From assembly GCA_964576535.1 (NCBI GenBank), contig CAZNWB010000006.1:1088-65087 (forward strand): DNA of 64,000 bases. Direction: 5' to 3'. Position numbers and translations under genes: made by a program. The notes beneath the pieces are model-generated. The model did not search any database. It was not told the origin of the DNA and was given only the letters and a program-made list of their open reading frames with translations. Shown piece after piece: positions 3,322-63,888 of the stretch (its first letter is position 1; each line of letters starts with the position of its first letter). The stretch is from an uncultured bacterium (GTDB lineage: Bacteria > Methylomirabilota > Methylomirabilia > Methylomirabilales > 2-02-FULL-66-22).

Positions 3322-3447
3322 AGCTATCAGCCTTCAGCGGTCAGCGATCAGCTCTTGGACGAAGAGAACTGGGTACCCTGCGTGGAAAGGGCGTTCGAGG
3401 GGTCCGCGGAATCGGTAGCTGATAGCTGACGGCTGACCGCTGAGAGC
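3322..3447. repeat. stutter palindrome (word TCAGC/GCTGA)
   Basis: left arm 3322-3353 = 4 tandem nnTCAGC units; right arm 3417-3447 = 4 tandem GCTGAnn units; 63-nt spacer; ends 23 nt before the uvrC ATG. Confidence 0.85.
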
Positions 3448-3469
3448 CAGCCAGTTCTTGGGCATACGC

Positions 3470-5260
3470 ATGGACCTTCAGGAGAAGATTCGCAGCCTGC
3501 CGGACGCGCCGGGGGTGTACCTGTTCAAGGACGCCCGGGGGGAGCACCTCTACATCGGCAAGGCAGTCTCCCTCCGCAAGCGGGTCCAGTCGTACTTCAC
3601 CGACCGCGACTTCGGCTACGACGCCGAGCGCCTCAGAACAATGGTGGGGCAGATCGCCGACGTGGAGTTCCTGCTCACCGCCAACGAGCTGGAGGCGCTG
3701 ATCCTCGAAAGCAACCTCATCAAGCAGCGGCGGCCGCGCTACAACATCGTTCTCAGGGACGACAAGCACTACCCCTTCATCCGCCTGAACCTCAAGGACC
3801 CGTTCCCCGCCCTGCAGGTGACCCGCCGGATCAAGAACGACGGCGCCCTCTACTTCGGCCCCTATGTCCCGGCCGGGACCATGTGGAACCTCCTCGCGCT
3901 GATCAACCGGACCTTTCCCCTGCGGACGTGCCGCAGCATCGCCGGGCGCACGCTGTGCCTCGAGTATCACCTGGGTCGCTGCCTGGGCCCGTGCGAGGGC
4001 CTGGTGACACAGAAGGACTACGCGGAGATCGTCCAGAAGGTGCGGCTCGTCCTGGAGGGGAAGGACCAAGAGGTCGTCCGGCAGATGGAGGGGCAGATGC
4101 GCCAGGCGGCGGACCGACTGGAGTACGAGCGGGCCGCCAAGATCCGGGATCGGATCGAGACCCTCCGGGATGCGACGGAGAATCAGCGGGTGATCTCGGC
4201 CCGGGGCGAGGACCAGGACATCTTCGGCCTCGCCCAGGAGGGAAGCGAGGTCCAGGTGCAGCTTCTCGTGGTCCGGGGCGGGCAGCTCATCGGGCGAGAT
4301 AGCTTTGTCTTCGAGGGTGTGGCCTCCGGCGGTGCCCCGGAACTGTTGAGTTCGCTCCTGGCCCAGTACTACCTGGGGTCCCGCTACATTCCGAAGACGA
4401 TCCTGACCTCGCACCTGCCATCGGATGCGGACCTTTTGGCGGCCATGCTGTCGGGGCGGGCGAAACGCCAGGTGGAGATCCGGGTGCCCGAGCGGGGACC
4501 CAAGGCCCACCTGGTGGAGATGGCGGTGGGGAACGCCCAGGCCCTCTTGGCCCAGAGCCTCACATCGGCCGCGTCCCGCGAGAAGGCCATGGTAGAGGTG
4601 CAGGACGCACTCGCTCTTCCCGGCCCTCCGCGGCGGATCGAGTGCACGGACATCTCCAACATCTCCGGCGTCCTGGCGGTCGGGTCACTGGTCACCTTTG
4701 TGGACGGGCGGCCGCACCGGCAAGAGTACAAGCGGTTCCGGATTCAGAGCGTGCTGGGGGCCGACGACTACGCCATGCTGCGCGAGGTGCTCCAGCGCCG
4801 GTTTGCCAAGAAGGAGTGGCCGCTCCCCGACCTCTTGCTGATTGACGGGGGACGCGGGCAGCTCAACGTGGGGATCCTGGCGGCGAAGGAGGCTGGGCTG
4901 GCGGACCTGCCGGTGGCCAGTCTGGCCAAGGAAGAAGAGCTGGTGTTTCGCCCGGGCCGACCGGAACCGATCCGGCTCCCGGATGGATCGCGGGGCAAGC
5001 ACCTGCTTCAGCAGGTGCGGGACGAGACACACCGGTTCGCCCTGACGTACCATCGAAGCCTGCGGGGAAAGAGCGGCATGCGGTCCATCCTGGATGAGAT
5101 CCCGGGGATCGGGCCGCGGCGGAAGCGCGTGCTCCTGCAGCGGTTCGGGAGCCTGAAGCGCCTGCGGGCCGCCTCGCTGGAGGAACTCACGACGGTGGGG
5201 GGCCTTCCCCCTCGTATCGCCGAGGCGACCCACCGCCTCCTAAGTGCTGCGGCCGATTAA
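3470..5260 (+). CDS. uvrC: excinuclease ABC subunit C
   Basis: GIY-YIG N-terminus (GVYLFKDARGEHLYIGKAVSLRKRV), UVR-type helix (LEYERAAKIRDRIETL), C-terminal HhH region; ~596 aa from ATG 3470 (ORF opens at TTG 3458). Confidence 0.95.
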   Translation: MDLQEKIRSLPDAPGVYLFKDARGEHLYIGKAVSLRKRVQSYFTDRDFGYDAERLRTMVGQIADVEFLLTANELEALILESNLIKQRRPRYNIVLRDDKHYPFIRLNLKDPFPALQVTRRIKNDGALYFGPYVPAGTMWNLLALINRTFPLRTCRSIAGRTLCLEYHLGRCLGPCEGLVTQKDYAEIVQKVRLVLEGKDQEVVRQMEGQMRQAADRLEYERAAKIRDRIETLRDATENQRVISARGEDQDIFGLAQEGSEVQVQLLVVRGGQLIGRDSFVFEGVASGGAPELLSSLLAQYYLGSRYIPKTILTSHLPSDADLLAAMLSGRAKRQVEIRVPERGPKAHLVEMAVGNAQALLAQSLTSAASREKAMVEVQDALALPGPPRRIECTDISNISGVLAVGSLVTFVDGRPHRQEYKRFRIQSVLGADDYAMLREVLQRRFAKKEWPLPDLLLIDGGRGQLNVGILAAKEAGLADLPVASLAKEEELVFRPGRPEPIRLPDGSRGKHLLQQVRDETHRFALTYHRSLRGKSGMRSILDEIPGIGPRRKRVLLQRFGSLKRLRAASLEELTTVGGLPPRIAEATHRLLSAAAD

Positions 5261-5272
5261 ACCCAAGCATCG

Positions 5273-5429
5273 CACCGCAAAGCTCGCAAAGGTCGCAAAG
5301 GTCCGCCAAGTTTCAACAACCTGAGGCCGGCGCATGGGCCAAAATACTCCGGTATGCTCCGGGCGTTTTTTCCCCACCGTCACTTTGGATATGAGGGATT
5401 TCTTTGCGGCCTTGGCGACCTTGGCGGTG
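5273..5429. repeat. stutter palindrome (words CGCAAAG/CCAAG)
   Basis: left arm 5273-5310 = 4 units (CCGCAAAG, TCGCAAAG, TCGCAAAG, CCGCCAAG); right arm 5402-5429 = CTTTGCGG, CTTGGCGA, CTTGGCGG; 91-nt spacer; starts 13 nt after the uvrC stop. Confidence 0.85.
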
Positions 5430-5478
5430 AAAAATCCGGTTTCATTCCGAAGGTCTTGAACGAAGAACGGGAGGCAAG

Positions 5479-5874
5479 ATGAAGCGCGAGGCGGTACGAA
5501 CCGACAGGGCACCGAAGGCGATCGGTCCCTACGAGCAGGCGCTGAAGGTTGACGGGTGGGTGTTCACGTCCGGCCAGATCCCCCTAGACCCCAAGACCGG
5601 CGCCATGGTGGAGGGGGGCATCGGCGCCCAGACCCGGCAGGTGCTGGACAATCTCCGGGCTGTGCTGGAGGCGGCCGGGACCTCGATGAGTCGGGTCGTG
5701 AAGACCACGGTGTACATGGCCAACCTTGCGGACTTCCAGAAGATGAACGAGGTCTACGCCGAGTACTTCCCGCAGGACAAACCCGCCCGCTCCACCGTCG
5801 GTGTCGCGGCCCTGCCGCGCGGGGCCATGATCGAGATCGACGTCGTGGCCCAAACCCCGCTGCGCGGGGAATGA
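5479..5874 (+). CDS. RidA/YjgF family reactive-intermediate deaminase
   Basis: 131 aa; APKAIGPYEQA, FTSGQIPLDP and ARSTVGVAALPRGAMIEIDVVA match the RidA family pattern. Confidence 0.9.
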   Translation: MKREAVRTDRAPKAIGPYEQALKVDGWVFTSGQIPLDPKTGAMVEGGIGAQTRQVLDNLRAVLEAAGTSMSRVVKTTVYMANLADFQKMNEVYAEYFPQDKPARSTVGVAALPRGAMIEIDVVAQTPLRGE

Positions 5875-5983
5875 AAAACCGACAACTGACAACGGACAAC
5901 CGGCCATTGTAATTGACCGGTTTTGAGTTGTCGGTTGTCGGTTTTCAATTGGTGTGGTCAGTTGTCCGTTGTCTGTTTTTCAC
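5873..5983. repeat. stutter palindrome (word GACAAC/GTTGTC)
   Basis: 5873-5903 = 3 x nGACAAC; 5921-5946 and 5957-5983 each hold 2 x GTTGTCn; followed by GC hairpin GCCCCGCG-tct-CGCGGGGC (5986-6004); between convergent genes. Confidence 0.85.
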
Positions 5984-6003
5984 TGGCCCCGCGTCTCGCG
6001 GGG

Positions 6004-8657: not shown

Positions 8658-8903
8658 GTGAAGAAGCTTGCACTTGTTGCCGTGGTTGCAGCGCTCGTCC
8701 TGGCGGTGGGGGCTCCGGCCTATGCTTTCACGTGCCCGGCCCTGATCCGGCAGGCGAACGAGCAGATGGCCAAGATGGACCAGAATAGCGACAAGATCGT
8801 GAAGGCCAAGGCCCTGGTCGAGGAAGCCGACAAGCTGCACAAGGCCGGGAACCACGATGAGTCGACGAAGAAGGCCAGGGAGGCCCTGGACACCCTGAAG
8901 TAA
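8658..8903 (+). CDS. small secreted protein, unknown function
   Basis: 81 aa; GTG start with AAGGAGGAG upstream; signal peptide (ALVLAVGAPAYA); charged helical remainder; strong terminator downstream. Confidence 0.55.
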   Translation: MKKLALVAVVAALVLAVGAPAYAFTCPALIRQANEQMAKMDQNSDKIVKAKALVEEADKLHKAGNHDESTKKAREALDTLK

Positions 8904-8929
8904 CCGTCCCGAAACGCGGGGCCAGAACC

Positions 8930-9181: not shown

Positions 9182-9258
9182 GGGCGCTTAGCTCAGCTGG
9201 TTAGAGCGCCGTCTTCACACGGCGGAGGTCACTGGTTCGATCCCAGTAGCGCCCACCA
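9182..9258 (+). tRNA. tRNA-Val (anticodon CAC)
   Basis: cloverleaf read by eye: acceptor GGGCGCT/AGCGCCC, D arm GCTC-AGCTGGTTA-GAGC, anticodon stem CCGTC/GGCGG with loop TTCACAC, T arm ACTGG-TTCGATC-CCAGT, encoded CCA. Confidence 0.95.
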
Positions 9259-9269
9259 AGGAAGATGGA

Positions 9270-10949: not shown

Positions 10950-12167
10950 ATGATCGGTCCAGGCGGATCCAGTGTGGCAGCGATCCGGGAATTCGGCGAA
11001 GGCTCGAACCGACGGTGTGAGGGTGTCTGGAGACTCCTACTGAGCGGGGCCCTGCTCTTGTCCTTCCTGGCAAGTCCCGCCGTGGCCGCAAGGTCCCGGC
11101 CGAAATCCCCGCCGGTCAAGCCTGAGGCCGAAGCAGCCTGGATCACCATGGATGCGGACTCGGGAGATGTCATAGCCAGCCGGAATCCCGATGGTCCGGT
11201 CGCCCCGGCCTCCATGACCAAGATGATGCTGGCCCTCCTGGTCATGGAGGCGATCCGGGATGGCCAGATGACCCTGGCGGATCCGGTCCGGACCTCGCCG
11301 CTGGCCAGCAAGATGGGTGGTTCCCAAGTGTTCCTGAAGTCCGGAGAGGCGTTCCCGGTCGAGGACATGATGGCGGCACTGCTCATCGGCTCCGCCAACG
11401 ATGCGTCCGTGGCCCTGGCCGAGCGATTGGGCGGCAGCGTTCCGGGGGCGCTCCACCGGATGAACGAGCGGGCGGCCGCGCTGGGTCTTTCCCGGACGCG
11501 CTTCGCGTCCGTCCACGGGCTTCCCCCCGGAGCGGGGCAAGAGGGAGATATCTCCACACCGCGGGACATGGCCCGCCTCTCCCAGGAGCTGGTCAAGTTC
11601 CCGGACATCCTCCGCTGGACGTCCACCGAGGAGGCTCCGTTCCGCCAGGGGGCGTTCATCCTGCGAAACAGCAATCAGTTGATCGGTCACTTTCCGGGGG
11701 CGGATGGGCTGAAGACAGGTCATATCCGGGAGGCCGGGTACAATCTCGCCGCCACGGCGAAGCGGGGCGCAGTGCGCCTCATCACCGTCGTGATGGGCGC
11801 GGGAAGCAATCGGGCGCGGTTTGCAGAGGCGGCGCGGCTCTTGGAGGAGGGGTTCAGCCGCTATGTCGAGGTCACCGTGGCAAGGGGAGGACAGCCCGCG
11901 GGGACAGAGATCCACCTTCCCCGCGCCAACGGGGCCTTCCGTCCCGTGCCCACGGGGGATCTGAGGGTCTTCGTGAAGCGTGAGGCACGAGAGACGGTCC
12001 GGACGACCGTCGAAGTCCAATCGGGCCTGCGAGCACCGGTGACAAAGGGACAGCCGGTGGGCCATCTGGTCGCCCGCATCGGCGATCGTGAGATCGCCCG
12101 CGTTCAGGTGGTGGCGGGGGTGGGGGTGCGGAGAACCTTCTTCTGGTGGCTCACGCCCTGGCGCTGA
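10950..12167 (+). CDS. D-alanyl-D-alanine carboxypeptidase (peptidase S11)
   Basis: 405 aa; GGGAGG upstream; signal peptide; motifs SMTK (SxxK), SAN (SxN) and KTG (LKTGHI). Confidence 0.85.
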   Translation: MIGPGGSSVAAIREFGEGSNRRCEGVWRLLLSGALLLSFLASPAVAARSRPKSPPVKPEAEAAWITMDADSGDVIASRNPDGPVAPASMTKMMLALLVMEAIRDGQMTLADPVRTSPLASKMGGSQVFLKSGEAFPVEDMMAALLIGSANDASVALAERLGGSVPGALHRMNERAAALGLSRTRFASVHGLPPGAGQEGDISTPRDMARLSQELVKFPDILRWTSTEEAPFRQGAFILRNSNQLIGHFPGADGLKTGHIREAGYNLAATAKRGAVRLITVVMGAGSNRARFAEAARLLEEGFSRYVEVTVARGGQPAGTEIHLPRANGAFRPVPTGDLRVFVKREARETVRTTVEVQSGLRAPVTKGQPVGHLVARIGDREIARVQVVAGVGVRRTFFWWLTPWR

Positions 12168-18750: not shown

Positions 18751-18832
18751 CGGCAACCAGGCAATTGGGCGATCCGGCAATCTGGGTCTTCCTGGTTGCC
18801 AAATTGCCAAGTTGCCTGATTGCCTGATTGCC
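18751..18832. repeat. stutter palindrome (word GGCAA/TTGCC)
   Basis: left arm 18751-18782 (3 GGCAAy words), 11-nt spacer, right arm 18794-18832 = 5 x rTTGCCnn; fills the 89-nt gap between convergent stops. Confidence 0.85.
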
Positions 18833-20828: not shown

Positions 20829-20974
20829 ATCCACAGATTTCGCAGATTCCCGCAGATTCATCCGGAACGACCTCCCCCTTGAAATCGGCCAATCTGCGCC
20901 CCTCGGTTGCACTCGGGGCCGTTCGGCTGAGCTCACGACGAAGCCCTGAGCCTGCCGAAGGGTAATCTGTGGAT
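20829..20974. repeat. stutter palindrome (word CGCAGATT/AATCTGCG)
   Basis: 20829-20863 = CCACAGATT, CGCAGATT, CGCAGATT in tandem; complements AATCTGCG (20891-20898) and AATCTGTGG (20964-20972); between the AOR stop and the SDR start. Confidence 0.75.
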
Positions 20975-24506: not shown

Positions 24507-24543
24507 CGTCCCTCATCCCGTCCCTCATCCCGTCCCTCATTCC
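24507..24543. repeat. direct tandem repeat, 12-mer x3
   Basis: CGTCCCTCATCC, CGTCCCTCATCC, CGTCCCTCATTCC; lies between the PfkB remnant and the iolB stop. Confidence 0.9.
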
Positions 24544-36218: not shown

Positions 36219-36486
36219 ATCATACCCTATATTGCCTTGGGAGCGCCAGCATTTCTCGCTGCGGCTGGACGGGTCCAGCGGACCCCAGTGTCTCCCGCAT
36301 CAAGGTGGAGGCGTGGACGCGACGGTGCAGGAAATGCGGAATCGAGCCCCTCCGGGGGGGTTGCGGGGGGAAACCTTGAGCGTTTGCCAATCGGCTAAGG
36401 GGTGGGGCAATCGCAGGAAGGTCGGCCGATCTACAATCTCGCAGCGCCAGTCAAAATCCGAAATCCATTATTCGAGGTTGCCTGAC

Positions 36487-37869: not shown

Positions 37870-37898
37870 CCGAAATCCACAATCCGAAATCGAAAATG
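37870..37898. repeat. direct stutter repeat (word CCGAAATC)
   Basis: CCGAAATCCACAATCCGAAATCGAAAATG abuts the stop at 37899; a related AAAATCCGAAATCC sits at 36453-36466 after the decayed paralog. Confidence 0.7.
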
Positions 37899-39633: not shown

Positions 39634-39708
39634 CTTATGGCGTAGAGCCTATGGCCTATGGTCCGGACTTGACCATACGCCATTTGCCATAAGCCATACG
39701 CCATTGGC
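39634..39708. repeat. stutter palindrome (word TATGG/CCATA)
   Basis: left arm 39634-39661 (TTATGGCG, CTATGGC, CTATGG), 11-nt spacer, right arm 39673-39708 = 5 x CCATwnn; 10 nt from the stop at 39718. Confidence 0.85.
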
Positions 39709-40478: not shown

Positions 40479-40547
40479 CGTTCGGTTGTTCGAGGGTTCG
40501 AGTGTTCGGTCGTACGGGAACCACCGAACTGCCGAACGATCGAACGC
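40479..40547. repeat. stutter palindrome (word GTTCG/CGAAC)
   Basis: left arm 40479-40512 = 4 x GTTCGrnn, 8-nt spacer, right arm 40521-40547 = 3 x CGAAC words; 3 nt from the stop at 40550. Confidence 0.85.
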
Positions 40548-43329: not shown

Positions 43330-43853
43330 GTCGACCTTTCACCTTGCACGTCCTCGCAACCCCTCGGAGTCTTCTCACTTGAATGGCGAACGAGATGGGG
43401 TCGGCTCACGGTCCGGCATGGCCGTGCTCATCTTGATCCGGTCTCGAATGGTTCTCTTTCCGCCCGGGCACCTGTGAAATCCGATCCCATCTCTGTCGTG
43501 GAGAGTCCCGACTGGAAGGGGATGTGCTAATTTGGGGCACCTGCCGATCCTTGTCAGGCTGACCGAAGACACCGCTGACCCTTCGTATCCCTTATTGTGA
43601 CAGGGATGGGGTGCTAAGTAGCTATTTTTCTTTGAAAGGGAGGGGGGGAGTCAAAACCTCCACTTTCCGACTGGAGAGCCGGCAGCTCGTGGCCTCGTTT
43701 ATGTATGGGAGTAGCAGCCCTCCCCAAAGTGGTCGGAATCTGTCCGAGTAATCCTCACAGAGATGAGCCAGGTCCATGGAGATTCGCGGGCGTGATCCCA
43801 GGGGAAGGCAGACGAGGGGAGCGTTGAACCCCAGGTGGGGGATCGCCTTCCTC

Positions 43854-44651
43854 ATGGCCGTCTTTATCCACACGCAAGCCTGCACCCCGCTCCTTGTCGT
43901 CGGCTCGGCGATTGGGTTCGGCGTTACCTATTACTCCGGGAACGTCGCCGAGCGGACATTCACGTATGAGCTTACCAAGGTTTGGGAAGCCACCGTTAGC
44001 GCCCTGGACGAGATGGCCATTACGGTCGTGGACAAGAACCAAGGGGAAACCGCGTGGGAGATCCAGGCCAGGACCGACGAGCTGAGCATCGAGATCATGT
44101 TCGATGCGGTGACGCCATCGACGACCAAGGTGAAGGTGACCGCGGCCAGGAATGGCATCCTCAGGGACATGGCCACCGCGACGGAGATTGTGGCGCAAAT
44201 CAACAACCAGCTCGTGAGAGAAGAGGCAAAACGACCGGCCCACAAGTCAAAGGGGAAGGTGGCTGGCCTGAGCGGGAACGATCGGAAGCGATCCACGAAC
44301 GGCGCGTCCACGAATGCGACGTCCTCAAAGGAGACCTCGGGTCCGGCCCGCAGGTTCGTCGAGATCAGGGTCGATTCGGCCAACATCCGTGCCGAAGGGA
44401 CCACGGACAGCCAGGTGCTGGTGACCCTCCCGCGAGGAACGAAGCTCGAACAGCTGGCCGAGATGTCGGATTGGGTGAAGGTACGGCTGGCAGGTGGGCT
44501 CGAAGGGTTCATCGCACGGCGGCTGGTGCAGGAGATCGACGGGATCCCACAGGCCGGTTCGGGAATCGCCGGTGCCATCTCCCCCCAAACTCGGAGTTCC
44601 CCTGTGACTCCAAGTCCAATCCATCCGGCCGAATACGCCGGCTCGCGTTGA
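43854..44651 (+). CDS. lipoprotein with C-terminal SH3b-like domain
   Basis: probable start ATG 43854 (MAVFIHTQAC lipobox; ORF opens at 43776); C-terminal ANIRAEGTTDSQVLVTLPRGTKLEQLAEMSDWVKVRL resembles bacterial SH3. Confidence 0.55.
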   Translation: MAVFIHTQACTPLLVVGSAIGFGVTYYSGNVAERTFTYELTKVWEATVSALDEMAITVVDKNQGETAWEIQARTDELSIEIMFDAVTPSTTKVKVTAARNGILRDMATATEIVAQINNQLVREEAKRPAHKSKGKVAGLSGNDRKRSTNGASTNATSSKETSGPARRFVEIRVDSANIRAEGTTDSQVLVTLPRGTKLEQLAEMSDWVKVRLAGGLEGFIARRLVQEIDGIPQAGSGIAGAISPQTRSSPVTPSPIHPAEYAGSR

Positions 44652-44681
44652 GCGCCCCTCGCTGCTTCCCCTCCGCCCGGT

Positions 44682-44711
44682 GATGGGGGCGGGCCATTGC
44701 CCGCCCCCATC
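44682..44711. terminator. bidirectional hairpin between convergent genes
   Basis: perfect 12-bp stem GATGGGGGCGGG/CCCGCCCCCATC with a 6-nt loop; between stops at 44651 and 44745; no clear U-run. Confidence 0.5.
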
Positions 44712-44744
44712 CCTCCCCGCCCGCCTCTCCCTACCGCCCCGGAC

Positions 44745-46077: not shown

Positions 46078-46156
46078 CCCCCTCACCTCCCCTCTCCCCG
46101 GTACCCGTTGCTCTTCCCCATGCAACGGGTGATGGGAGAGGGCCAGGGTGAGGGGG
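46078..46156. repeat. long imperfect palindrome (C/T-rich vs G/A-rich arms)
   Basis: CCCCCTCACC...ACCCGTTGC, 10-nt loop, GCAACGGGT...GGTGAGGGGG; the outer 10 bp and inner 9 bp are perfect; partial extra copy at 45968-46013. Confidence 0.8.
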
Positions 46157-48166: not shown

Positions 48167-48286
48167 CCGTTCGGTCGTTCGGGTGTTCGGGGCACCCACG
48201 CCACGGCGGTGGACATCCACCGCGGTGCCGTGGGTGCCGGTCGTTCTAGAACCACCGAACGACCGAACCACCGAACCACCGAACGC
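48167..48286. repeat. stutter palindrome (GTTCGG/CCGAAC) with a nested palindrome
   Basis: left arm 48167-48192 = 3 x GTTCGG words; core 48192-48237 is a ~22-bp-stem palindrome with 2 mismatches; right arm 48251-48286 = 4 x CCGAAC words. Confidence 0.85.
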
Positions 48287-49416: not shown

Positions 49417-49490
49417 GTGCTGCAGTGCTGCTGTTGGGGCAGGTCAGTACGGCAGCACCGCAGCATCCGCCAGAGGCGGACACTGCAGAA
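49417..49490. repeat. stutter palindrome (GTGCTGC/GCAGCAC) with core hairpin
   Basis: GTGCTGCA, GTGCTGCT ... GCAGCACC, GCAGCAT, then TCCGCC-aga-GGCGGA (49466-49480) and CACTGCAG; between the stop at 49497 and the start at 49404. Confidence 0.8.
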
Positions 49491-51698: not shown

Positions 51699-51850
51699 GG
51701 TCGAAAGGTCGAGTGGTCACCTCGTCGATTGGCCCAGCAGGGATGGGTGTTTCTCACGCTCCGTTGAGAACGGCCACTCGCCGGTCCTTCCCGGGCCTCG
51801 ACTGCCAGGCCTTCGACTACTCGACCAATTGACTATTCGACTCCTCGACG
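51699..51850. repeat. stutter palindrome (word GTCGA/TCGAC)
   Basis: 51699-51730 = 4 GTCGA-type words; 51796-51850 = 5-6 TCGAC words; about 65-nt spacer; between the stop at 51859 and the start at 51689. Confidence 0.8.
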
Positions 51851-51858: not shown

Positions 51859-52878
51859 TCATTTCGGCAGGGGGAAGACCTGCTCCGTCCATCGCTTGAT
51901 CAGCCCGTCCCGGACGGCGGGCGTGCCGTACTTGCCGAAGTCGTAGGCGATGACCTTGGCGTCCTCGAACCGGGGGACATCGGGATCAATAACCGATTTC
52001 GAGTTGGACGGGATGCTGACCTCGCCGTTCTGGGGGCCGAGCTTCTGGTTCTCCGGCTCCAGGGCCCAGTCAATGAGCTTCAACCCGTTCGCCCGATTGG
52101 GGCCGCCCTTCACCAGGTTGAGCCCTCCGATCTCGTAGCCGGTGCCGTCTCTCGGTCCCACGAAACGGATCGGGAAGCCCTTCCGCGCCCGCTCAACGAC
52201 GTCGTTGGCGAAGGAGACGCCGACGGCCACCTCGCCGCGGCCCGCCAGGAGGCTCGGGTCGCCACCGCTCCGGGTGTACTGGCCGATATTTCTATGGATG
52301 GCCTTGATCAATTCAAAGCCCTGGTCCTCGCCGTAGATCTGGACGATGGTGGTCATCATCACGTAGCCGGTACCCGAGGTGTTGGGGTTGGGCATGGCGA
52401 TGAGGCCCTTGTACTTCGGGTCCCCCAGCTCCTTCCAGGTCTCCGGGACGGGCAGGTTCTTCTCTTTCAAGATCTTCTCGTTGACGCCGAAGCCGTGCAG
52501 GCCGGTGTAGAGCGGGATATAATGCCCATCCACCGCCTTGGTGAGCTGTGGCCGCAGCTCGCCCCACGCCTTGGGTCGGAAGAACTCGGCCAGGCCCTCG
52601 GCCTCGGCCACCCACTGGGAGTCCCCGCTTCCACCGAACCACACGTCAAAGGCAGGATTCGCCTTCTCGGCGCGGAGTCGGGCCAGGGCCGCCCCGGAGC
52701 TGAGCCGCACGAACTCCGTCTGGATCCCGGTCTTGCTGAATTCGCGCTTCACCGCCTCGCACCAGGCCGGGTCGGGGCTGCACAGGATCGTCACCGTGTT
52801 CTCGCCCGCCAAGGCGGGCAGCGCAAACAGGACAGCCAGGGCGATCGCCAACAGAACCAGCCAACCTCTTCTTTTCAT
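51859..52878 (-). CDS. ABC substrate-binding protein (family 1, AfuA/FbpA/PotD-like), copy 2
   Basis: ATG 52878 with GAAGGAGGGG upstream (ORF opens at 52908); signal peptide; about 90% identical by eye to the 52910..53932 product. Confidence 0.85.
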   Translation of the reverse strand: MKRRGWLVLLAIALAVLFALPALAGENTVTILCSPDPAWCEAVKREFSKTGIQTEFVRLSSGAALARLRAEKANPAFDVWFGGSGDSQWVAEAEGLAEFFRPKAWGELRPQLTKAVDGHYIPLYTGLHGFGVNEKILKEKNLPVPETWKELGDPKYKGLIAMPNPNTSGTGYVMMTTIVQIYGEDQGFELIKAIHRNIGQYTRSGGDPSLLAGRGEVAVGVSFANDVVERARKGFPIRFVGPRDGTGYEIGGLNLVKGGPNRANGLKLIDWALEPENQKLGPQNGEVSIPSNSKSVIDPDVPRFEDAKVIAYDFGKYGTPAVRDGLIKRWTEQVFPLPK

Positions 52879-52909
52879 CGTGACCCCTCCTTCATTCCAC
52901 CAACTCACA

Positions 52910-53932
52910 TCACTTGGGCAGGGGAAAAACTTGCTCGGTCCACCTCTTGATCAGGCCATCGCGGACGGCGGGCGTGCCGTATTTGCCGAAATCGTAGGAA
53001 ATCACCTTGGCGTCTTCGAAGCGAGGCACGTCGGGATCAATGACCGATTTCGAGTGGGAGGGGATGCCGGGCTCACCGTTCTGGGGGCCCAGCTTCTGGT
53101 TTTCCGGCTCCAGGGCCCAGTCAATGAGCTTCAACCCGTTGGCCCGATTGGGGCCACCCTTCACCAGGCTGAGGCCCGCGATCTCGTAGCCGGTCCCGTC
53201 CTTGGGCGCCACGAAACGGATCGGGAAACCCTTCCGCACCCGCTCCACCACGTCATTCGCGAAGGAAACCCCGATGGCCACCTCGCCGCGGCCTGCCAGC
53301 AGGCTGGGGTCGCCGCCGCTCCGAGTGTACTGGCCGATGTTCTTGTGGACGGCCTTGATCAGCTCGAAGCCCGGGTCCTCGCCGTAGATCTGGACGATGG
53401 TGGTCATCATCACGTAGCCGGTCCCCGACGTGTTCGGGTTGGGCATAGCGATGAGCCCCTTGTAGCGCGGGTCGCCCAGCTCCTTCCAGGTTTCCGGGAT
53501 TGGCAGGTTCTTCTCCTTGAGGAGCTTCTCATTGACCCCAAACCCATGGAGCCCGGTGGTGAGGGGAATGTAGTGACCGTCCACCGCCTTGGTGAGCTGT
53601 GGCCGCAGCTCGCCCCATGCCTTGGGCCGGAAGAACTCGGTGAGCCCCTCGGCCTGCGCCACCCAGTGGGGATCACCCGTGCCGCCGAACCAGACGTCGA
53701 AGGCTGGGTTGGCCTTCTCTGCCCGCAGGCGAGTCAGGGCCGCGCCCGAGCTGAGGCGAACGAACTCCGTCTGGATCCCGGTCTTGCTGAATTCGCGCTT
53801 CACCGCCTCGCACCAAGCTGGGTCGGGGCTGCACAGGATCGTCACCTGGTTCTCCCCAGCCCAGGCTGGCAAGGCACACAGGACCGCCAGAACCGTTCCC
53901 ACCAACACCACCCATGAAGCTCTCCGGGTCAT
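52910..53932 (-). CDS. ABC substrate-binding protein (family 1, AfuA/FbpA/PotD-like), copy 1
   Basis: 340 aa; GGGAGGG upstream; signal peptide (VLVGTVLAVLCALPAWA); tandem paralog of 51859..52878. Confidence 0.85.
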   Translation of the reverse strand: MTRRASWVVLVGTVLAVLCALPAWAGENQVTILCSPDPAWCEAVKREFSKTGIQTEFVRLSSGAALTRLRAEKANPAFDVWFGGTGDPHWVAQAEGLTEFFRPKAWGELRPQLTKAVDGHYIPLTTGLHGFGVNEKLLKEKNLPIPETWKELGDPRYKGLIAMPNPNTSGTGYVMMTTIVQIYGEDPGFELIKAVHKNIGQYTRSGGDPSLLAGRGEVAIGVSFANDVVERVRKGFPIRFVAPKDGTGYEIAGLSLVKGGPNRANGLKLIDWALEPENQKLGPQNGEPGIPSHSKSVIDPDVPRFEDAKVISYDFGKYGTPAVRDGLIKRWTEQVFPLPK

Positions 53933-53954: not shown

Positions 53955-54025
53955 GTGTTGCAGTCCTGCAGTGGTGGAACAGCAGTCCGCCTCTGGCGGA
54001 CAACACTTCCACACCGCAGCACAGT
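53955..54025. repeat. stutter palindrome (TGCAG/GCAGC words) with core hairpin
   Basis: GTGTTGCA, GTCCTGCA, GTGGTG...AGCAG, then TCCGCC-tct-GGCGGA (53986-54000), the exact reverse complement of 49466-49480, then ...CCGCAGCAC. Confidence 0.8.
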
Positions 54026-54031: not shown

Positions 54032-55342
54032 TTAGCCAAGCACTTGGTCCAGATTCGCGAAGACCCGCTGGAAGGCCTCCACGTATGCGCGCATCAGCTC
54101 CAGGGATTGCGGGAACAGGGGATAGGAATGCGACCCGATCACCAGCGAGTCGGTGAGCAGCTTGATGGTCTCGGGGTACTCGGTCAGGTCGTACTTCACC
54201 TCTTCGCCCAGCGGGCATTTCCAGGGGCAGGACAGACCGTAGCCGGTCCGCTCCTGGAACAACGTCTGGCCCGGGACCGGGACCGTCTGCCACAAGCTGA
54301 CCTCCACCCCCTCGGCCTTCAGGGCGGCGAGCAGCTTGAGCCGGAATTCCCTCGAGGGGATGTCCACGCCCGCAGCGCGGGGGTTCAACCGGATGCGATA
54401 CTGGTAGTAGCTCGAGGTGCAGTCGGGGGGAACGTAGGGGTGGATGATCCCCGGGATCTTCCCCAGGTGCTCCGTGAGGAAGGCGGCATTCTGTCGCGTG
54501 TTGACCAGCCAGTCATCCAGGCGGCGCAGCTGGCTCCGGCAGAGCGCGGCGGTGAGTTCGGTGGTCCGGTACATCCACCCCATCATCAGGGAGTTGTATT
54601 CCCGGATCCCATCCAGGGGACGGCTCGGGTCGAAGGCCTTGTGGTCGCTCTCCTGGATGTCCTCTCCGAACATCCGGAACCGATTGGCGCGATCCCGGAG
54701 ATCGGGACGGTTGGTCACGAACATTCCGCCCTCGCCCGCGGGCAGGTTCTTGCTGGCCTGGAAGGAGAAGCACCCCATGTCCCCGATCCCGCCGACCTTC
54801 TTGCCCTTGTAGAGCGACCCGTGGGCCTGGGCCGCGTCCTCGATCACCAGAAGGCCGTACTTGCTCGCGATGGCCTGGATGCGTTCCATGTCCGCAGGGA
54901 CGCCGTGGATGTGGACCGGGATGATGGCCTTGGTGCGGGCGGTGATCCGTTCCTCGATCTTGGCCGGGTCGATGGTGAAGGTCCGCGGGTCGATGTCCAC
55001 GAAGACGGGGACGGCGTTGTGCTGCAGGACCGCCAGGGCCGTCGCGAGGAACGTGAAGGCCGTGGTAATCACCTGATCCCCGGTGCCGATCCCGCCAGCC
55101 GCCACCGCGGTGTGCAGGGCGGCCGTCCCGCTGTTGGTGGCGAGGGCGTAGCGCACGCCGCAGTAGCGGGCCCACTCCTCCTCCAGGGCCTTCACCTGGG
55201 GGGCGTACGGACCGGAGACGATCCCGGAATCCAGGGCGGCCAGGACGGCCGCCTTGTCCTCGTCGCTGATCACAGGCCACCGGCGATGCAAGGTCTTGGG
55301 AACCACGGGGCTCCCCCCGCGAAGGGCAAGCCTCTCGCTCAT
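54032..55342 (-). CDS. DegT/DnrJ/EryC1/StrS family PLP aminotransferase
   Basis: ATG 55342 overlaps the LacI stop (ATGA); 436 aa; ATNSGTAALH, DAAQAHG, SFQASKNL (PLP-Lys context). Confidence 0.9.
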   Translation of the reverse strand: MSERLALRGGSPVVPKTLHRRWPVISDEDKAAVLAALDSGIVSGPYAPQVKALEEEWARYCGVRYALATNSGTAALHTAVAAGGIGTGDQVITTAFTFLATALAVLQHNAVPVFVDIDPRTFTIDPAKIEERITARTKAIIPVHIHGVPADMERIQAIASKYGLLVIEDAAQAHGSLYKGKKVGGIGDMGCFSFQASKNLPAGEGGMFVTNRPDLRDRANRFRMFGEDIQESDHKAFDPSRPLDGIREYNSLMMGWMYRTTELTAALCRSQLRRLDDWLVNTRQNAAFLTEHLGKIPGIIHPYVPPDCTSSYYQYRIRLNPRAAGVDIPSREFRLKLLAALKAEGVEVSLWQTVPVPGQTLFQERTGYGLSCPWKCPLGEEVKYDLTEYPETIKLLTDSLVIGSHSYPLFPQSLELMRAYVEAFQRVFANLDQVLG

Positions 55343-56538
55343 GGGTAACTCCTTCCCGTTCGGAGCGATCGCCGCGAGGTTCGGGCGCCACGACCACCGC
55401 CACCGGTGCCGCTCGCGGAACCGAATCCGGCACCGGAGCCGCTCCCGGCGCCGGCACCAAGCCTGGTGCCGACGCCGCCACCAGCAGCCAATCGGCTGCC
55501 GGCACCACATGACGAGCGAATCAACAGTGTGTGGGACACCACGGTGGTGGAGAAGACGTGCTGCTCCGCCTGTTCCATCTGAGCGATGGCCCGGCGGACG
55601 GCTAGGCGCCCCATCTCGTCCTTGGGGACGGCCACGGTAGTCAGGGGCGGGGTGGTGTGGGCCGCGTATTCAATGTCATCGTAGCCGACGAGGGCGAGGT
55701 CGTCGGGAACACGCAACCCCTGCTCGCGGATGGCCCGCATGGCCCCGATGGCCATGTCGTCGTTGGTGAAGATGGCGGTGGGGCGACCCGGGCCCTTGAG
55801 AAGGATCTCGGTGGCCGCGTGGCCACCCTCGGGTCGGAGCGGCGCTTCGACCACGAGGTCATCCTTGACGGGGATCCCGGCCTCGTGGAGGGCACGCCGG
55901 TAGCCGCTGGCCAGGGCCTGGGAGAAGGGGTGTCGGGCCGGACCGCGAATCAGGGCGATGCGGCGGTGCCCGAGCTTGATCAGGTGGCGGGTAGCCTCGT
56001 AGGCGCCCTGGGCGTCGTCACAGACCACGGCATCCGCGTCCCGGATCGGAGATCGCATGTCCACCAGGACGAGGGAAAAGCCGTTGGCGTGGAGCTGGCG
56101 CACCAGCCGAGGCGGCAGCTTGCCCACCAGGATCAGCCAGCGGGTCATCATCTCGCGGATCATCCGCGGGTATTCCGACGGGGGGGTGGCCTCGCCCATC
56201 CCGTACCCGAGCAAGAGGTGGCAGTCGAAGCGGCGCGCCTCGTCGGCGATGCCCTGGATGATCCCGGCGAAGTAGCTGTGAGAGGTCACGACCTCGGGGC
56301 TGAGGATGGTGCCGATAATGCGCTCGTCGCCCGCGCTCGGAGCGGTGCGGCTGGCCAGGCGCTGGGCGGCGGGGTTGGGGATGTACCCGAGTCGGCGGAC
56401 GGCGGCCAGGACCCTGCGCCGGCTGGCCGGGCTGACGTCCGGGCGGCCGCGGACCACCCGGGAGACGGTCATGATTGACAGCCCGGTGTGCCGTGCGATG
56501 TGCTTCAGCGTGACCGGAGCGCGCAGGGATCTCGGCAT
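55339..56538 (-). CDS. LacI family transcriptional regulator with a Gly/Ala/Ser-rich C-terminal extension
   Basis: HTH VTLKHIARHTGLSIMTVSRVV; sugar-binding core ends near ..TLLIRSS; 56 extra low-complexity residues follow (55342-55509). Confidence 0.85.
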   Translation of the reverse strand: MPRSLRAPVTLKHIARHTGLSIMTVSRVVRGRPDVSPASRRRVLAAVRRLGYIPNPAAQRLASRTAPSAGDERIIGTILSPEVVTSHSYFAGIIQGIADEARRFDCHLLLGYGMGEATPPSEYPRMIREMMTRWLILVGKLPPRLVRQLHANGFSLVLVDMRSPIRDADAVVCDDAQGAYEATRHLIKLGHRRIALIRGPARHPFSQALASGYRRALHEAGIPVKDDLVVEAPLRPEGGHAATEILLKGPGRPTAIFTNDDMAIGAMRAIREQGLRVPDDLALVGYDDIEYAAHTTPPLTTVAVPKDEMGRLAVRRAIAQMEQAEQHVFSTTVVSHTLLIRSSCGAGSRLAAGGGVGTRLGAGAGSGSGAGFGSASGTGGGGRGARTSRRSLRTGRSYP

Positions 56539-57794: not shown

Positions 57795-57825
57795 CCGCAG
57801 ATGAACGCACATGGACGCAGATTCC
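57795..57825. repeat. direct stutter repeat (word CGCAGAT)
   Basis: CCGCAGATGAA, CGCACATGGA, CGCAGATTCC; same word as 20829-20863; no inverted partner seen; 21 nt after the stop at 57774. Confidence 0.7.
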
Positions 57826-58856: not shown

Positions 58857-58868
58857 TCAGTCTCCGGC

Positions 58869-60524: not shown

Positions 60525-60528
60525 CGCC

Positions 60529-61533: not shown

Positions 61534-61540
61534 AGAGCGG

Positions 61541-61607
61541 GGGCCAGGGATCAGGGGCCAGGGATCAGGGGTCGGACCCCGACCCCTGGCACCTGATCCC
61601 CGAGCCC
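61541..61607. repeat. stutter palindrome (word GGATCAGG/CCTGATCC)
   Basis: GGCCAGGGATCAGG x2 in tandem, central hairpin GGGGTCGG-acc-CCGACCCC, then TGGCACCTGATCCCCGAGCCC; starts 8 nt after the stop at 61533. Confidence 0.85.
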
Positions 61608-61637
61608 GGTCGTTGGGGGAGGAGGGTAGGCCAGCCC

Positions 61638-62717: not shown

Positions 62718-62721
62718 AAGC

Positions 62722-62847
62722 AATGGAAAATTTCAAACCGACAATGAAAAACGGACAACGCGGAGCTGGCGAAGGCCGCATGCTGGTCGGGCCAATCGGG
62801 CCTCGGCTCATTGTCAGTTGTCAGTTGTCAGTTTTCCATTTTTCATT
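62722..62847. repeat. stutter palindrome (GACAA/TTGTC plus AATGAAAAA words)
   Basis: left arm 62722-62760 (AATGGAAAA..CCGACAATGAAAAACGGACAACG); right arm 62809-62847 (CATTGTCAGTTGTCAGTTGTCAGTTTTCCATTTTTCATT); 48-nt spacer; starts 5 nt after the stop. Confidence 0.85.
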
Positions 62848-62862
62848 GGAAGGACGTCGGCC

Positions 62863-63720
62863 ATGAAGGCCTCCGAGTTTCGGGCGGGGCAACTACCGAC
62901 GGACGTCCGGCGCTTGGTGACCGAGGCAATTCTCGTCGCGCGCGAGGCGGGCCGCATCCTTCGGCGCCGCTTCCGGACGGCGCTGCGCATTTCGAGGAAG
63001 GGGCCGGGCGACATCGTGACCGCGGCCGATGTGGAGGTCCAGGCCATGATCGCCCGGCGGCTGCGTCGGGCGTTCCCGACCCACGGCATCCTGGCGGAGG
63101 AGGGACTGGACGCCACGGCCGGGACAGAGTGGCGCTGGATCGTGGACCCGCTGGACGGAACCAAAAACTTCGCCCGCGGCATCCCCAGCTTTTGCGTGTC
63201 CATCGGGGCCGAGCGGGAGGGCAAGGTCGAGCTCGGCGTCGTGCTCGACCCGACCCAGGAAGAGTTGTTCGTGGGGGCACGCGGGGCCGGCGCCTGGTTG
63301 AACGGCCGGCGCATCCACGTCTCCGAGGTCTCGGATCTTGCGGGCGCGTTTCTGGGGACCGGACTTCCCAACCGGGTGCGAAGGTTCGCCGGCCCCGTGG
63401 CCCGGGTGTTCAGTCGCTTCGCTGCCCGCTGCCTGGGGGTCCGGGATCGCGGCGCCGGGGCCCTGGACCTGTGCTACGTCGCCTGCGGCCGGTTCGACGG
63501 CTACTGGGAGGTGGATCAATCCCCCTGGGACATCGCCGCAGGAGGCCTCATCGTGGAGGAGGCCGGCGGGCGCATGTCCAACTTCCGGGGCGGGCCGTTC
63601 GACATCTACGGAGGCGAGACAGTGGCGAGCAACGGGAAGATTCACGACCAGATGCTCGCGCTGCTGGGTGCCCGCGCCGGCATGCCCCGGGGCTACCGGC
63701 CTCCTGTACGACGACGCTAG
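62863..63720 (+). CDS. inositol monophosphatase family protein
   Basis: ATG 62863 with GGAAGGA upstream (ORF opens at 62617 across the repeat); ILAEEG, WIVDPLDGT, PWDIAAG. Confidence 0.85.
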   Translation: MKASEFRAGQLPTDVRRLVTEAILVAREAGRILRRRFRTALRISRKGPGDIVTAADVEVQAMIARRLRRAFPTHGILAEEGLDATAGTEWRWIVDPLDGTKNFARGIPSFCVSIGAEREGKVELGVVLDPTQEELFVGARGAGAWLNGRRIHVSEVSDLAGAFLGTGLPNRVRRFAGPVARVFSRFAARCLGVRDRGAGALDLCYVACGRFDGYWEVDQSPWDIAAGGLIVEEAGGRMSNFRGGPFDIYGGETVASNGKIHDQMLALLGARAGMPRGYRPPVRRR

Positions 63721-63748
63721 CGTGCTTGATCCAAACAGGAATAGCAAA

Positions 63749-63888
63749 CCGCCAAGACACCAAGAACACCAAGAAAGCCCAACTATTCTTCAAAGATGAG
63801 GGACCCGTGCAGAAGTGAAGAGGGGCTTCGATCTCCGAGAGGCATCGAGGAGTTGCTGAAGGTTGGTGAACCTTGGTGTCTTGGTGCC
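63749..63888. repeat. stutter palindrome (word CACCAAG/CTTGGTG)
   Basis: left arm 63749-63778 (CCGCCAAG, ACACCAAG, AACACCAAG); right arm 63861-63888 (GGTTGGTG, AACCTTGGTG, TCTTGGTG); 82-nt spacer; 29 nt after the stop. Confidence 0.85.

Follow-up and report, generated by a model that had tools for sequence, protein, structure and literature searches.

Stop-codon-proximal palindromes with tandem-word arms in an NC10 genome segment, its relatives, and phages

The gene spacers of a 64,000-nt stretch of contig CAZNWB010000006.1 from an uncultured bacterium of the Methylomirabilota (NC10) carry palindromes whose arms are built from short tandem words. These elements, listed between positions 3322 and 63888 of the stretch (hereafter the window), are a real, abundant, and dispersed class of repetitive extragenic palindromes whose position follows transcription units. 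The best reading of the data, to which about even weight is given, is that they are intercistronic RNA stem-loops which resemble repetitive extragenic palindromic (REP) sequences, are built from slippage-prone short tandem repeats, and have a presumed function in expression. An initial annotation of the window, made from its sequence, had described the architecture at 16 loci and a single arm at four more; it placed all but one of the 16 near a stop codon, many between co-directional genes and mostly without a U-tract, with words that recur at distant loci and arms that can pair in several registers. The present analysis agrees on all of these points except for one locus (55342–55509), which consists of separate GC-rich hairpins. 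In the comparisons that the annotation proposed, the density surpasses that of shuffled and of coding sequence, and the folds are more stable than those of shuffles. The description was incomplete in that dispersed families, nested insertions, replacement and gain of elements, and their spread across phyla and into phages were not included.

Architecture and Abundance of the Palindromes

At 15 of the 16 loci an arm of two to five tandem words of 7–10 nt is followed by a spacer and an arm of reverse-complement words; three of the fifteen (20829, 46078, and 53955) are weaker members. A word consists of an invariant core of 5–6 nt and 2–3 variable bases, as can be seen in the element upstream of uvrC (AGCTA TCAGCCT TCAGCGG TCAGCGA TCAGCTC ... 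GCTGATA GCTGACG GCTGACC GCTGAGA) and in a second example (GTTCGGTT GTTCGAGG GTTCGAGT GTTCGGTC ... CGAACTGC CGAACGAT CGAACGC). Tandem Repeats Finder reported arrays with a period of 7–9 and 2.6–7.6 copies at 14 loci, and the arms were paired by an inverted-repeat finder, with which the printed sequences concur. At least 12 different words occur within the 64 kb, and four of them are found at two loci each: GTTCG (40479 and 48167), GACAAC (5873 and 62722), CAGAT (20829 and 57795), and GCAGCAC (49417 and 53955). A nested design, with outer words around inner words, is present at 5873, downstream of uvrC in L001, L002, and L004, and in L027 and L038 (L numbers designate loci from other genomes and contigs).

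A strict periodicity detector (+1/−2 scoring) missed most loci because 2–3 bases per word vary, and an exact-core detector was used instead. It calls a 5-mer that occurs at least twice at a spacing of 6–12 nt and is accompanied, within 250 nt, by two or more copies of the reverse complement; it is insensitive because exact cores are required. With at least five cores, six loci were found in the window compared with 0.125 ± 0.36 (maximum 2) per shuffle in 200 dinucleotide shuffles, and with at least six cores, four loci compared with 0.005. Per 64 kb, the six loci of the window compare with 2.4–4.0 in other NC10 loci, 1.3 in pSymB, and 0 in both E. coli and the Ralstonia megaplasmid. A palindrome-alignment score for long spacers was inflated by spacer length and was not used for claiming extra loci. 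Within 85 kb of NC10 intergenic DNA the most common period is 8, followed by 7 and 9 (49, 33, and 27 arrays), and 373 kb of coding DNA contains 43 period-8 and 18 period-7 arrays; the density of period 7–8 arrays is ~6-fold higher in intergenic than in coding DNA. Reverse-complement cores lie near 52 of the 75 intergenic arrays of the NC10 loci.

All 16 loci are more stable than dinucleotide shuffles (z −2.6 to −9.8), and five were confirmed with a fold tool. Among 38 spacers with a palindromic alignment score of at least 40, 69% of the aligned arm positions are Watson–Crick pairs and the mismatches are divided into 363 transversions and 202 transitions, nearly the random 2:1 ratio; the predicted stem is therefore a ladder of 5–6-bp helices with small internal loops. 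The fold of the element at 40479–40547 consists of 6-bp helices divided by 2 × 2 internal loops. At 3322–3447 there is a one-word difference between the minimum-energy and the centroid structure, and the register slippage is therefore real.

A search of the window against Rfam at the gathering score returned tRNA-Val (9182–9255) alone and matched no element, and at E ≤ 1 merely sub-threshold matches to miRNA-precursor hairpins were obtained, at 46078 and 61540. A CRISPR array, defined by identical direct repeats of 24–48 nt with unique spacers of similar length, was rejected: the units here are 7–10 nt long and contiguous, and the second arm is inverted. ARAGORN calls a 93-nt "tRNA-Arg" on the GTTCG element (48173–48265) and an 83-nt "tRNA-Pro" at the window end (63916–63998); both calls are considered false and caused by the hairpins because Rfam supports tRNA-Val only. 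In high-GC metagenome-assembled genomes (MAGs), elements of this kind lead both tRNA finders and gene callers astray.

Placement Relative to Genes

The elements start 0–38 nt past a stop codon (median ~8), and inside operons they often extend to the Shine–Dalgarno sequence of the next gene. Genes were mapped with a simple codon-bias caller, for which stop codons are reliable and start codons approximate. Across 26 NC10 loci, the exact-core detector identified elements in 26 of 166 co-directional and 4 of 18 convergent spacers but in none of the 32 divergent spacers, which are the longest (0/32 versus 30/184 others, Fisher p = 0.010). A terminator scan of 38–58 kb called no element, and T-runs are found only at 5873–5983 and, less clearly, at 62722–62847. 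The elements also mark transcript architecture in uncultured phyla.

The exception to the stop-codon rule is the element at 3322–3447 in the uvrC leader. It follows a promoter-like box (3277–3310), found conserved in eight or more NC10 genomes, and precedes the uvrC start (3470). The element is present in one relative (L003) and missing from six (L001, L002, L004, L005, L006, and L013). The box itself (GCCTTGACAGGGTCGGGCAAGTGTGCGACCGT) is 90–97% conserved in at least seven other NC10 genomes, unlike the surrounding spacer, and may represent the promoter plus operator of uvrC.

Retention and Conservation among NC10 Relatives

The window has a G+C content of 65%, and its UvrC (3470–5257) is 76–87% identical to UvrC of NC10/Methylomirabilota MAGs compared with 38–44% for Acidobacteriota. 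The uvrC neighborhood and a sugar operon were collected from 13 + 13 NC10 genomes, together with ~35 metagenome contigs, and the spacers were aligned gene by gene; the retention counts cover ~40 NC10 genomes. The sugar/inositol-type operon occupies the minus strand (38.6–56.5 kb) and encodes LacI, a DegT aminotransferase, two solute-binding proteins (SBPs), a fused permease, GFO/IDH/MocA oxidoreductases (GFO), inositol monophosphatase-family proteins (IMPases), a second ATP-binding cassette (ABC) system, and a creatininase-family protein. Another ABC operon lies on the plus strand (56.8–63.7 kb).

Strong palindromes recur at particular junctions: SBP to fused permease (25 of 27 spacers), SBP8 to permease (10/12), SBP-2 to permease-2 (10/12), ATPase to creatininase (9/9), permease to GFO-1 (9/10), and GFO-1 to IMPase-1 (16/22). 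None is found from permease to permease (0/12), from permease to ATPase (0/11), or from ATPase-2 to IMPase-2 (0/11). The pooled SBP-to-permease junctions carry an element in 45 of 51 cases, with at least six different words, and the words at the first of these junctions differ by lineage (GTCGAnnn/GTCAAnnn, GGTGGATT, CGCCAAGG, CCCTCTCC, and GAATGG). The window and its relatives offer a comparative handle on intergenic heptamer repeats: the same junctions have hairpins over ~40 genomes while the word turns over, cores are more conserved than synonymous sites, and a tailed phage uses the hairpins after most of its head genes.

The element between SBP and permease (spacer C, 169 nt) is 0.858 identical between the window and L235 compared with 0.689 for pooled 4-fold sites, and the element at 39634–39708 is kept in L235 with 128 of 145 nt, the flanking 4-fold sites being ~0.62 identical. 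Between genomes, the GTTCG cores in the GFO-1-to-IMPase-1 spacer (spacer E) are 0.90–1.00 identical, 4-fold sites 0.53–0.92, and variable positions 0.39–0.94. These core identities were obtained from arrays aligned by word register, which forces core onto core, and the weight is carried by the persistence of the word over such divergence, not by the core figure. Orthologous elements are also found in relatives for 40479–40547, which spans from 2 nt past the ABC-ATPase stop to the Shine–Dalgarno sequence of the next gene, and in L206, with the same arms, for 63749–63888. As judged from these alignments, elements have been kept long-term at specific operon junctions, with conserved cores.

Turnover of Elements and Dispersed Families

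The arms change between relatives by the gain and loss of whole words, as in the GTGCTGC element between permease and GFO-1 (spacer D), where L203 and L234 have an extra GTGCTGCT compared with L201 and L236; replication slippage is the presumed cause. Perfect arrays that are limited to one arm (62811, 48249, 61540, and 24507) point to recent slippage. Small palindromes are nested within elements: a 48–50-nt palindrome is inserted at GTTCGG^ or ^CCGAAC, in one or the other arm of the element, in spacer E of the window, spacers E and H of L233, and spacers E and F of L203. The palindrome of the window (48191–48238) has counterparts at other GTTCG-element positions in L203 and L233 and is absent from L257. 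Tested as a high-copy REP family, the nested palindromes gave merely two matches each in the window and two in 229 loci. A 17-nt mini-hairpin (GTCCGCC-nnn-GGCGGAC) is located within arms at 49465–49481 and 53985–54001 and is present or absent among close relatives; the L233 counterpart of 53955–54025 is without it and has two more words.

Whole elements are replaced, lost, and gained. A 196-nt CCCTC-type element replaces the GTGCTGC element in spacer D of L233, where the flanking proteins are 95–97% identical, and spacer E is reduced to 26–44 nt in L209, L211, L239, L254, and L272. A clean gain of 145 nt (62718–62862) is found in the window only. It splits a conserved ATGA stop/start overlap that is present, with a spacer of 2–3 nt, in six of six orthologs, and it is flanked by only weak GGAGG/GGAAGG similarity.

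Near-identical arms or centers occur at non-orthologous loci or in other genomes, with identities of 90.7% (75 nt), 100% (23 nt), and 96% (28 nt). The window sequence 48185–48259 matches a different spacer of L203 (90.7% over the 75 nt), the 23-nt arm at 46134–46156 is identical to part of a non-corresponding spacer (L203:8905–9067), and the arm at 5870–5899 is 90% identical over 30 nt to 62811–62840. Families also have common termini (ATCCRCAGATT..AATCTGYGGAT; CACCGCAAAGCTCGCARAG; AATGAAAAACnGACAAC..GTTGTCnGTTTTTCAY). The outer ends of 20829–20974 (ATCCACAGATT..AATCTGTGGAT) are shared with L001, L004, and L209, and its center matches L004:3451–3698; the arm CACCGCAAAGCTCGCARAG of 5273–5429 is also found in L007, L010, and L208, and the GGCAA word family of 18751–18832 in L002, L226, L210, L235, L239, and L242. 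The recurring arms and centers, together with the common termini, indicate that the elements are not merely local growths from a chance seed.

Occurrence in Other Phyla and in Phages

The same architecture is found at the uvrC loci of some Acidobacteriota, with the words TCAGCAn, GTCATTGr, ATCGGGnn, GGATTTn, and AATTGrT. With one genome per species, TCAGCnn × 4 gave at least 120 stretches, which among the matches listed are mostly from Acidobacteriota and also from Verrucomicrobiota, Planctomycetota, Chloroflexota, Cyanobacteria, Omnitrophota, Poribacteria, and Bacteroidota; GTTCGnnn × 4 gave at least 117, those among the matches listed including NC10, Bacteroidota (Haliscomenobacter), Vicinamibacterales, Chloroflexota, Lentisphaerota, and Burkholderiales. 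Among the matches listed, TCAGC precedes GCTGA in 13 of 13 strict two-arm cases (43 versus 5 under lenient settings) and GTTCG precedes CGAAC in ~19 independent cases versus none reversed. This order follows neither from RNA stability nor from the direction of transcription because both orders share the nearest-neighbor stacks and the architecture is strand-symmetric. Phyla in which the architecture itself occurs, beyond NC10, are Acidobacteriota, Planctomycetota, Bacteroidota, and Chloroflexota. The fixed arm order and the vocabulary shared across phyla are a puzzle that goes beyond stability.

In a Terriglobales locus (L027), TCAGCAn arms at 8673–8903 and 11890–12123 enclose TTAGCAn arms, with a GTAG-tagged hairpin (GTAGAGACGTAGC..GCTACGTCTC) at the center; the two are copies of one composite element, and their central hairpin is REP-like. 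L350 (7779–7959), from a "Sulfotelmatobacter" bin, has GTTCGGTG arms that are identical to the window element at 48167 in 34 of 35 positions; the match was discounted as a transfer between phyla because the contig has 70% G+C and is probably misbinned NC10-like DNA.

The TCAGC pattern is common in IMG/VR viral contigs (at least 120 stretches). L437 is a tailed-phage contig that encodes a large terminase, a portal, a head protease, and a major head protein, and it contains eight TCAGC palindromes in 9.2 kb, each 3–10 nt past the stop of a co-directional gene. They follow most genes of the TerL–portal–protease–capsid module, and L436 and L445 are similar. Overall, 34 of 46 viral elements have the stop codon of a reading frame of at least 300 nt within 40 nt on at least one side. 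Because such a density is kept in a size-limited genome, the viral elements are unlikely to be inert, and phages are a plausible vehicle between hosts.

Comparison with Known Repeat Systems

The initial annotation rightly set the elements apart from CRISPR arrays, from classical terminators (for most copies), from GTAG/CGTC-tagged REPs, and from clear MITEs (miniature inverted-repeat transposons) with terminal inverted repeats (TIRs) and target-site duplications. The kind is not without precedent: Xanthomonas genomes contain 70–75 convergent pairs of GGGAATC heptamer arrays each, which are able to form a stem-loop and have the same placement rules (Rehm et al. 2015, PMC4692102). The 7-nt units occur in at least two copies with a preference for ~4, and the arrays are intergenic, lie between open reading frames (ORFs) that are aligned, at most 50 bp from the stop, are rarer than expected between divergent ORFs, are transcribed, and keep the same gene neighbors in related species while varying in length (PMC4692102). 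G-quadruplex formation was proposed with the function left open, polymerase slippage was suggested as the origin of heptamer repeats, and GGGGA(C/T)T arrays in Nostoc were described likewise (PMC4692102). The NC10 elements share the tandem unit (here 7–9 nt), the convergent partner array, the intergenic near-stop placement, and the rarity between divergent ORFs. They differ in that a single G-rich word for which a G-quadruplex was proposed dominates in Xanthomonas, whereas at least 12 words with periods of 7–9, mostly incapable of forming a G-quadruplex, occur here, and in their nested architectures, dispersed families with conserved termini, cross-phylum spread, and phage carriage. Full-text literature searches turned up no description of this form, with its many words, nesting, and cross-phylum range, and no report of it from NC10, Acidobacteriota, or phages.

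Intergenic heptamer repeats go back in the literature to 1990, when the short tandemly repeated repetitive (STRR) sequences of cyanobacteria were reportedly described by Mazel, and they are still without a function or mechanism. Direct TAACTGA heptamers are found in Beggiatoaceae, cyanobacteria, and Bacteroidetes (MacGregor 2015, PMC4679880). Both are intergenic tandem heptamers of 2–6 or more copies that occur patchily among phyla and spread by a mechanism that is not known, and words of a similar type (CAACTGA/TCAGTTG) are present at 5873 and 62811. Unlike the NC10 elements, they are nearly all direct arrays (one inverted case in the BOGUAY genome) with a single word per genome and lie mostly just upstream of start codons.

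The SBP-to-permease junctions malE–malF and hisJ–hisQ are classical sites of REPs, which there stabilize the upstream mRNA segment. The likeness to REPs, to bacterial interspersed mosaic elements (BIMEs), and to REP doublets forming hairpins (REPINs) extends to extragenic position at 3′ ends and inside operons, hairpin formation, dispersal, nested or mosaic structure, presence/absence polymorphism, and a fixed relative orientation of the inverted halves. REPs are imperfect palindromes of 20–40 nt. Within a genome they follow one or a few consensus sequences, which often carry a GTAG/CGTC tag (PMC3733652), and they are tied to a REP-associated tyrosine transposase (RAYT, an IS200-like Y1 transposase). 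The present elements instead have tandem-word arms and many unrelated words, with no tag in the printed window elements; a GTAG-tagged hairpin was seen only as the nested center at the Terriglobales locus. MITEs such as Correia, ERIC, and Nezha are likewise small, non-coding, bounded by inverted repeats, dispersed, intergenic, and polymorphic for gain and loss, but here no clear target-site duplication and no related insertion sequence were found and the "TIRs" are degenerate arrays of variable copy number. The RNase III sites of phage T7 are intercistronic hairpins that process and stabilize a polycistronic phage mRNA. They are long and irregular with internal loops between cistrons, comparable to the head-module elements of L437, but they contain no tandem words and are not known from host genomes. 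Overall, the elements belong with the known but unexplained inverted intergenic heptamer/octamer arrays; they would act most like REPs but do not qualify as such.

Interpretation and Alternative Explanations

As REP-like stem-loops, the elements would be co-transcribed with the preceding genes, and the arms would pair core-to-core in the mRNA to form a long stem of 5–6-bp helices with a loop at every word, a few bases past the stop codon. Such a stem could stop 3′-to-5′ exonucleases from degrading the mRNA, or cause partial termination or processing. Expression of the upstream cistron (e.g., the SBP of an ABC operon) would then be uncoupled from that of the downstream cistrons and higher, comparable to the action of REPs at malE–malF and hisJ–hisQ or of T7 intercistronic hairpins. 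This amounts to a testable hypothesis, REP-like control of cistron stoichiometry by hairpins of slippage-prone repeats, and it agrees with the occurrence of elements at SBP-to-permease junctions and in the phage head module. Among the roles offered by the initial annotation, that of a stabilizer or attenuator and that of a product of slippage gain indirect backing from junction retention, conservation above the synonymous rate, and whole-word indels. Speculatively, the periodic internal loops may prevent RNase III from attacking a long stem, or keep the palindrome from being unstable as DNA. Four general explanations were dropped because each suits only some words: G-quadruplex formation, stops in all three frames, avoidance of Rho loading on a C-rich 5′ arm, and purine-rich internal loops.

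Several observations weigh against the stem-loop reading. The covariation between arms that the initial annotation looked to was not found: in duplex energies, cognate arms had no advantage over arms swapped between orthologs (spacer E, p = 0.46; C, p = 0.21; D, p = 0.67), and the pairing rests on the invariant cores, the variable positions being essentially unpaired. Folding favors the sense over the antisense transcript in 31 of 45 spacers (p = 0.02, data not independent) and G–T oppositions outnumber A–C (123 versus 79.5), but this lean towards RNA is treated as weak because element-free spacers show the same bias. The variable dinucleotides in one arm complement those in the other in composition, with no strand asymmetry. 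The element at 3322–3447 has a 5′ leader position, not a 3′ end, the fixed arm order across phyla is unexplained, and the replacement in spacer D between close genomes makes a strict need for a particular sequence unlikely. Junction-specific retention could merely mark sites that tolerate insertion, and the apparent conservation could stem from gene conversion among family copies. Finally, termination, processing, and stabilization at the elements are all effects that we infer.

The most serious rival, itself somewhat unlikely, is selfish non-autonomous mobile DNA (MITE- or REPIN-like) whose arms would be bound or cleaved by a structure- or sequence-specific enzyme and which would accumulate where it is harmless, with any effect on expression incidental. 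The near-identical arms and centers at non-orthologous loci and in different genomes, the family-specific termini, the clean 145-nt gain, the presence/absence polymorphism in the uvrC leader, the replacement between close relatives, the nested insertions at GTTCGG^CCGAAC, the high copy number in a phage, and an arm order fixed across phyla, as with oriented recognition, all favor mobility. However, no clear target-site duplication could be identified at the single clean gain, no related insertion sequence was found in the window, and a Pfam check of 30 window proteins revealed no transposase or RAYT. A 1.7-kb interval between two distant inverted TCAGC arrays (L097), considered as an autonomous element, consists of two independent hairpins and ordinary ORFs without a transposase. 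At least 12 words in 64 kb would further need many enzymes or a sequence-blind enzyme, orthologous copies with conserved cores persist over genomes that are ~80% identical in protein, and conservation exceeds the synonymous rate. The many words, together with the missing duplication, transposase, and tag, speak against the known mechanisms of mobility. Mobility is compatible with a function, REPs being both mobile and functional.

A broader and rather improbable proposal is that a single polarity-dependent process, common to many phyla and phages, writes gene-punctuating hairpins from a limited vocabulary (TCAGC, GTTCG, GTCGA, CAGAT, CAATGAC, and others) with the same arm first. Candidates are a structure-specific enzyme for mobilization or copying and a host factor whose reading of tandem words follows a set order. 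If this were true, the STRRs, Xanthomonas GGGAATC, Beggiatoa TAACTGA, and the present elements would be faces of one system.

Elements that act at the DNA level, as arrays of protein sites or as non-B DNA (cruciform or G-quadruplex) with effects on supercoiling, replication, or transcription, are highly unlikely. The strand-symmetric architecture with its fixed convergent word order resembles oriented DNA-binding sites, the variable positions show no strand asymmetry, and the cores are conserved as sequence and not merely as pairing; BIMEs bind gyrase and IHF, a G-quadruplex was proposed for the Xanthomonas arrays, and the left arm at 61541 is G-quadruplex-capable like GGGNATC. No single DNA-binding specificity fits at least 12 words, however, most of which cannot form a G-quadruplex, the 7–8-bp spacing is tight for duplex-binding domains, and placement tracks transcription units (after stops, never in divergent spacers).

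Very little probability is given to a mutational by-product of slippage and intra-strand template switching in quasi-palindromes, without function or dedicated machinery. Whole-word indels between close relatives, perfect one-arm expansions, single-arm loci, the published slippage suggestion, and a mini-hairpin TCCGCC-nnn-GGCGGA where a relative has GCGGA, consistent with snap-back copying, agree with it. Yet bacterial and still more phage genomes delete useless DNA while the elements persist at the same junctions with cores that are more conserved than synonymous sites; divergent spacers have none, the same words in the same arm order recur across phyla, and the E. coli and Ralstonia controls have none. 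A gain of 145 nt in a 2-nt spacer cannot derive from slippage.

There is only a slight chance that the elements are ordinary intrinsic (Rho-independent) terminators with stems repetitive by chance, as the A5 and T5 runs around 5873–5983 between convergent genes, the CGAACGnTTTTC ends of spacer E elements in many relatives, and the T6–7 ends of Haliscomenobacter copies might suggest, since the terminator scan called none of the elements in 38–58 kb, most lack a T-run, several directly adjoin the Shine–Dalgarno sequence of a co-transcribed gene that follows, one is located in a 5′ leader, and the periodic internal loops and long centers are unlike canonical stems.

Individual Loci and Neighboring Genes

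The loci of the window are collected in table 1. The element at 5873–5983 overlaps the stop codon of 5479–5874, and with an A5 run before and a T5 run after it therefore resembles a bidirectional terminator. The palindrome at 46078–46156 holds a nested perfect hairpin (ACCCGTTGC..GCAACGGGT), and the left arm at 61541 (G3–4 N3–4) is the sole G-quadruplex-capable word among the window elements. The doubtful locus 55342–55509 lies inside a ~50-codon extension of the LacI frame (55339–56538), whose orthologs end near residue 347; whether the true stop, or a true spacer, is located there is uncertain. For the four single arms no partner was found.

Table 1. Palindromic elements and single arms of the window
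Position	Element	Words (left arm / right arm)	Tandem Repeats Finder arrays	Fold z	Location or remark
3322–3447	TCAGC	TCAGCnn x4 / nnGCTGA x4, period 7	3322–3352 + 3417–3447	−3.6/−3.9	uvrC 5′ leader
5273–5429	CGCAAAG	CGCAAAGnn x3–4 / CCTTGGCGA x2.8, period 9	5276–5303 + 5402–5426	−3.7	uvrC to RidA-family gene
5873–5983	GACAAC, nested	GACAACn / GTTGTCn, period 7	5877–5902 + 5926–5977	−4.6	between convergent genes
18751–18832	GGCAA	GGCAAnnn x4 / nnnTTGCC x5, period 8	18796–18832	−6.2 to −6.8	fills convergent-gene spacer
20829–20974	CAGATT, weaker	CAGATTnn x3 / single AATCTG copies		−4.0	after AFOR gene stop
39634–39708	ATGGC	ATGGCnn / GCCATnn, period 7	39636–39661 + 39673–39704	−5.5	9 nt past creatininase-family stop
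40479–40547	GTTCG	GTTCGnnn x4 / nnnCGAAC x4, period 8	40488–40508	−3.6	
46078–46156	C-rich/G-rich imperfect palindrome, weaker	CCCCTCnC words		−6.5	
48167–48286	GTTCGG (spacer E)	GTTCGGnn x3–4 / CACCGAAC x4.5, period 8	48168–48191 + 48249–48284	−9.8	GFO-1 to IMPase-1
48191–48238	nested 48-nt near-perfect palindrome	GGCACCCACGCCACGGCGGT..ACCGCGGTGCCGTGGGTGCC			inserted in GTTCG element
49417–49490	GTGCTGC (spacer D)	GTGCTGCn / GCAGCACn, period 8		−5.3	fused permease to GFO-1
51699–51850	GTCGA (spacer C)	GTCGAnnn/GTCAAnnn x5 / TCGAC x4, period 8	51812–51842	−2.6	fills SBP-to-permease spacer
53955–54025	GTGCTGC/TGCAG member, weaker	mini-hairpin GTCCGCCTCTGGCGGAC at 53985–54001		−4.7	aminotransferase to SBP
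55342–55509	doubtful				separate GC-rich hairpins in series, not the tandem-word architecture
61541–61607	GGGnCAG	GGGnCAG (14-nt double unit x2.3, perfect) / CTGnCCC, period 7	61540–61571	−5.5 to −6.4	
62722–62847	GACAA	GACAAn / TTGTCAG x3.3 (perfect), period 7	62811–62833	−3.2	
63749–63888	CACCAAGAA	CACCAAGAA x2.8 / CTTGGTG x3, period 9	63752–63775	−5.1	after IMPase-2 stop
24507–24543	single arm	CGTCCCTCATCC x2.8, perfect, period 12			no reverse-complement partner
36453–36466	single arm	AAAATCC GAAATCC (CCGAAAT word)			no partner
37870–37898	single arm	CCGAAAT-type words x4, period 7			no partner
57795–57825	single arm	CGCAGATnn words x2.4, period 10			upstream of SBP-2 gene; no partner

Further observations concern the surrounding genes. 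Two tandem paralogous SBP genes are present in the window (51859–52851 and 52910–53911), whereas the orthologous operons all have one; the spacer between the paralogues (52852–52909) has no hairpin element. A DUF3568/SH3-domain gene on the plus strand (43776–44651) lies, opposite to its neighbors, between the SBP8 gene and its permease genes, which are ~100 nt apart in most orthologous operons where both were found. A compact near-perfect hairpin that is not of the tandem-word type (44680–44713), between convergent genes, may be an ordinary terminator. On the minus strand, adjacent small genes that match Pfam TumE toxin (35907–36218) and HVO_A0114 (35536–35907; together 35536–36218) probably form a toxin–antitoxin pair in a patch that is AT-richer than its surroundings. 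Many orthologous operons (L204, L205, L208–L211, and many metagenome loci) have an extra 0.9–2.4 kb in the permease–GFO-1 interval, which in the window is a spacer of only 101 nt.

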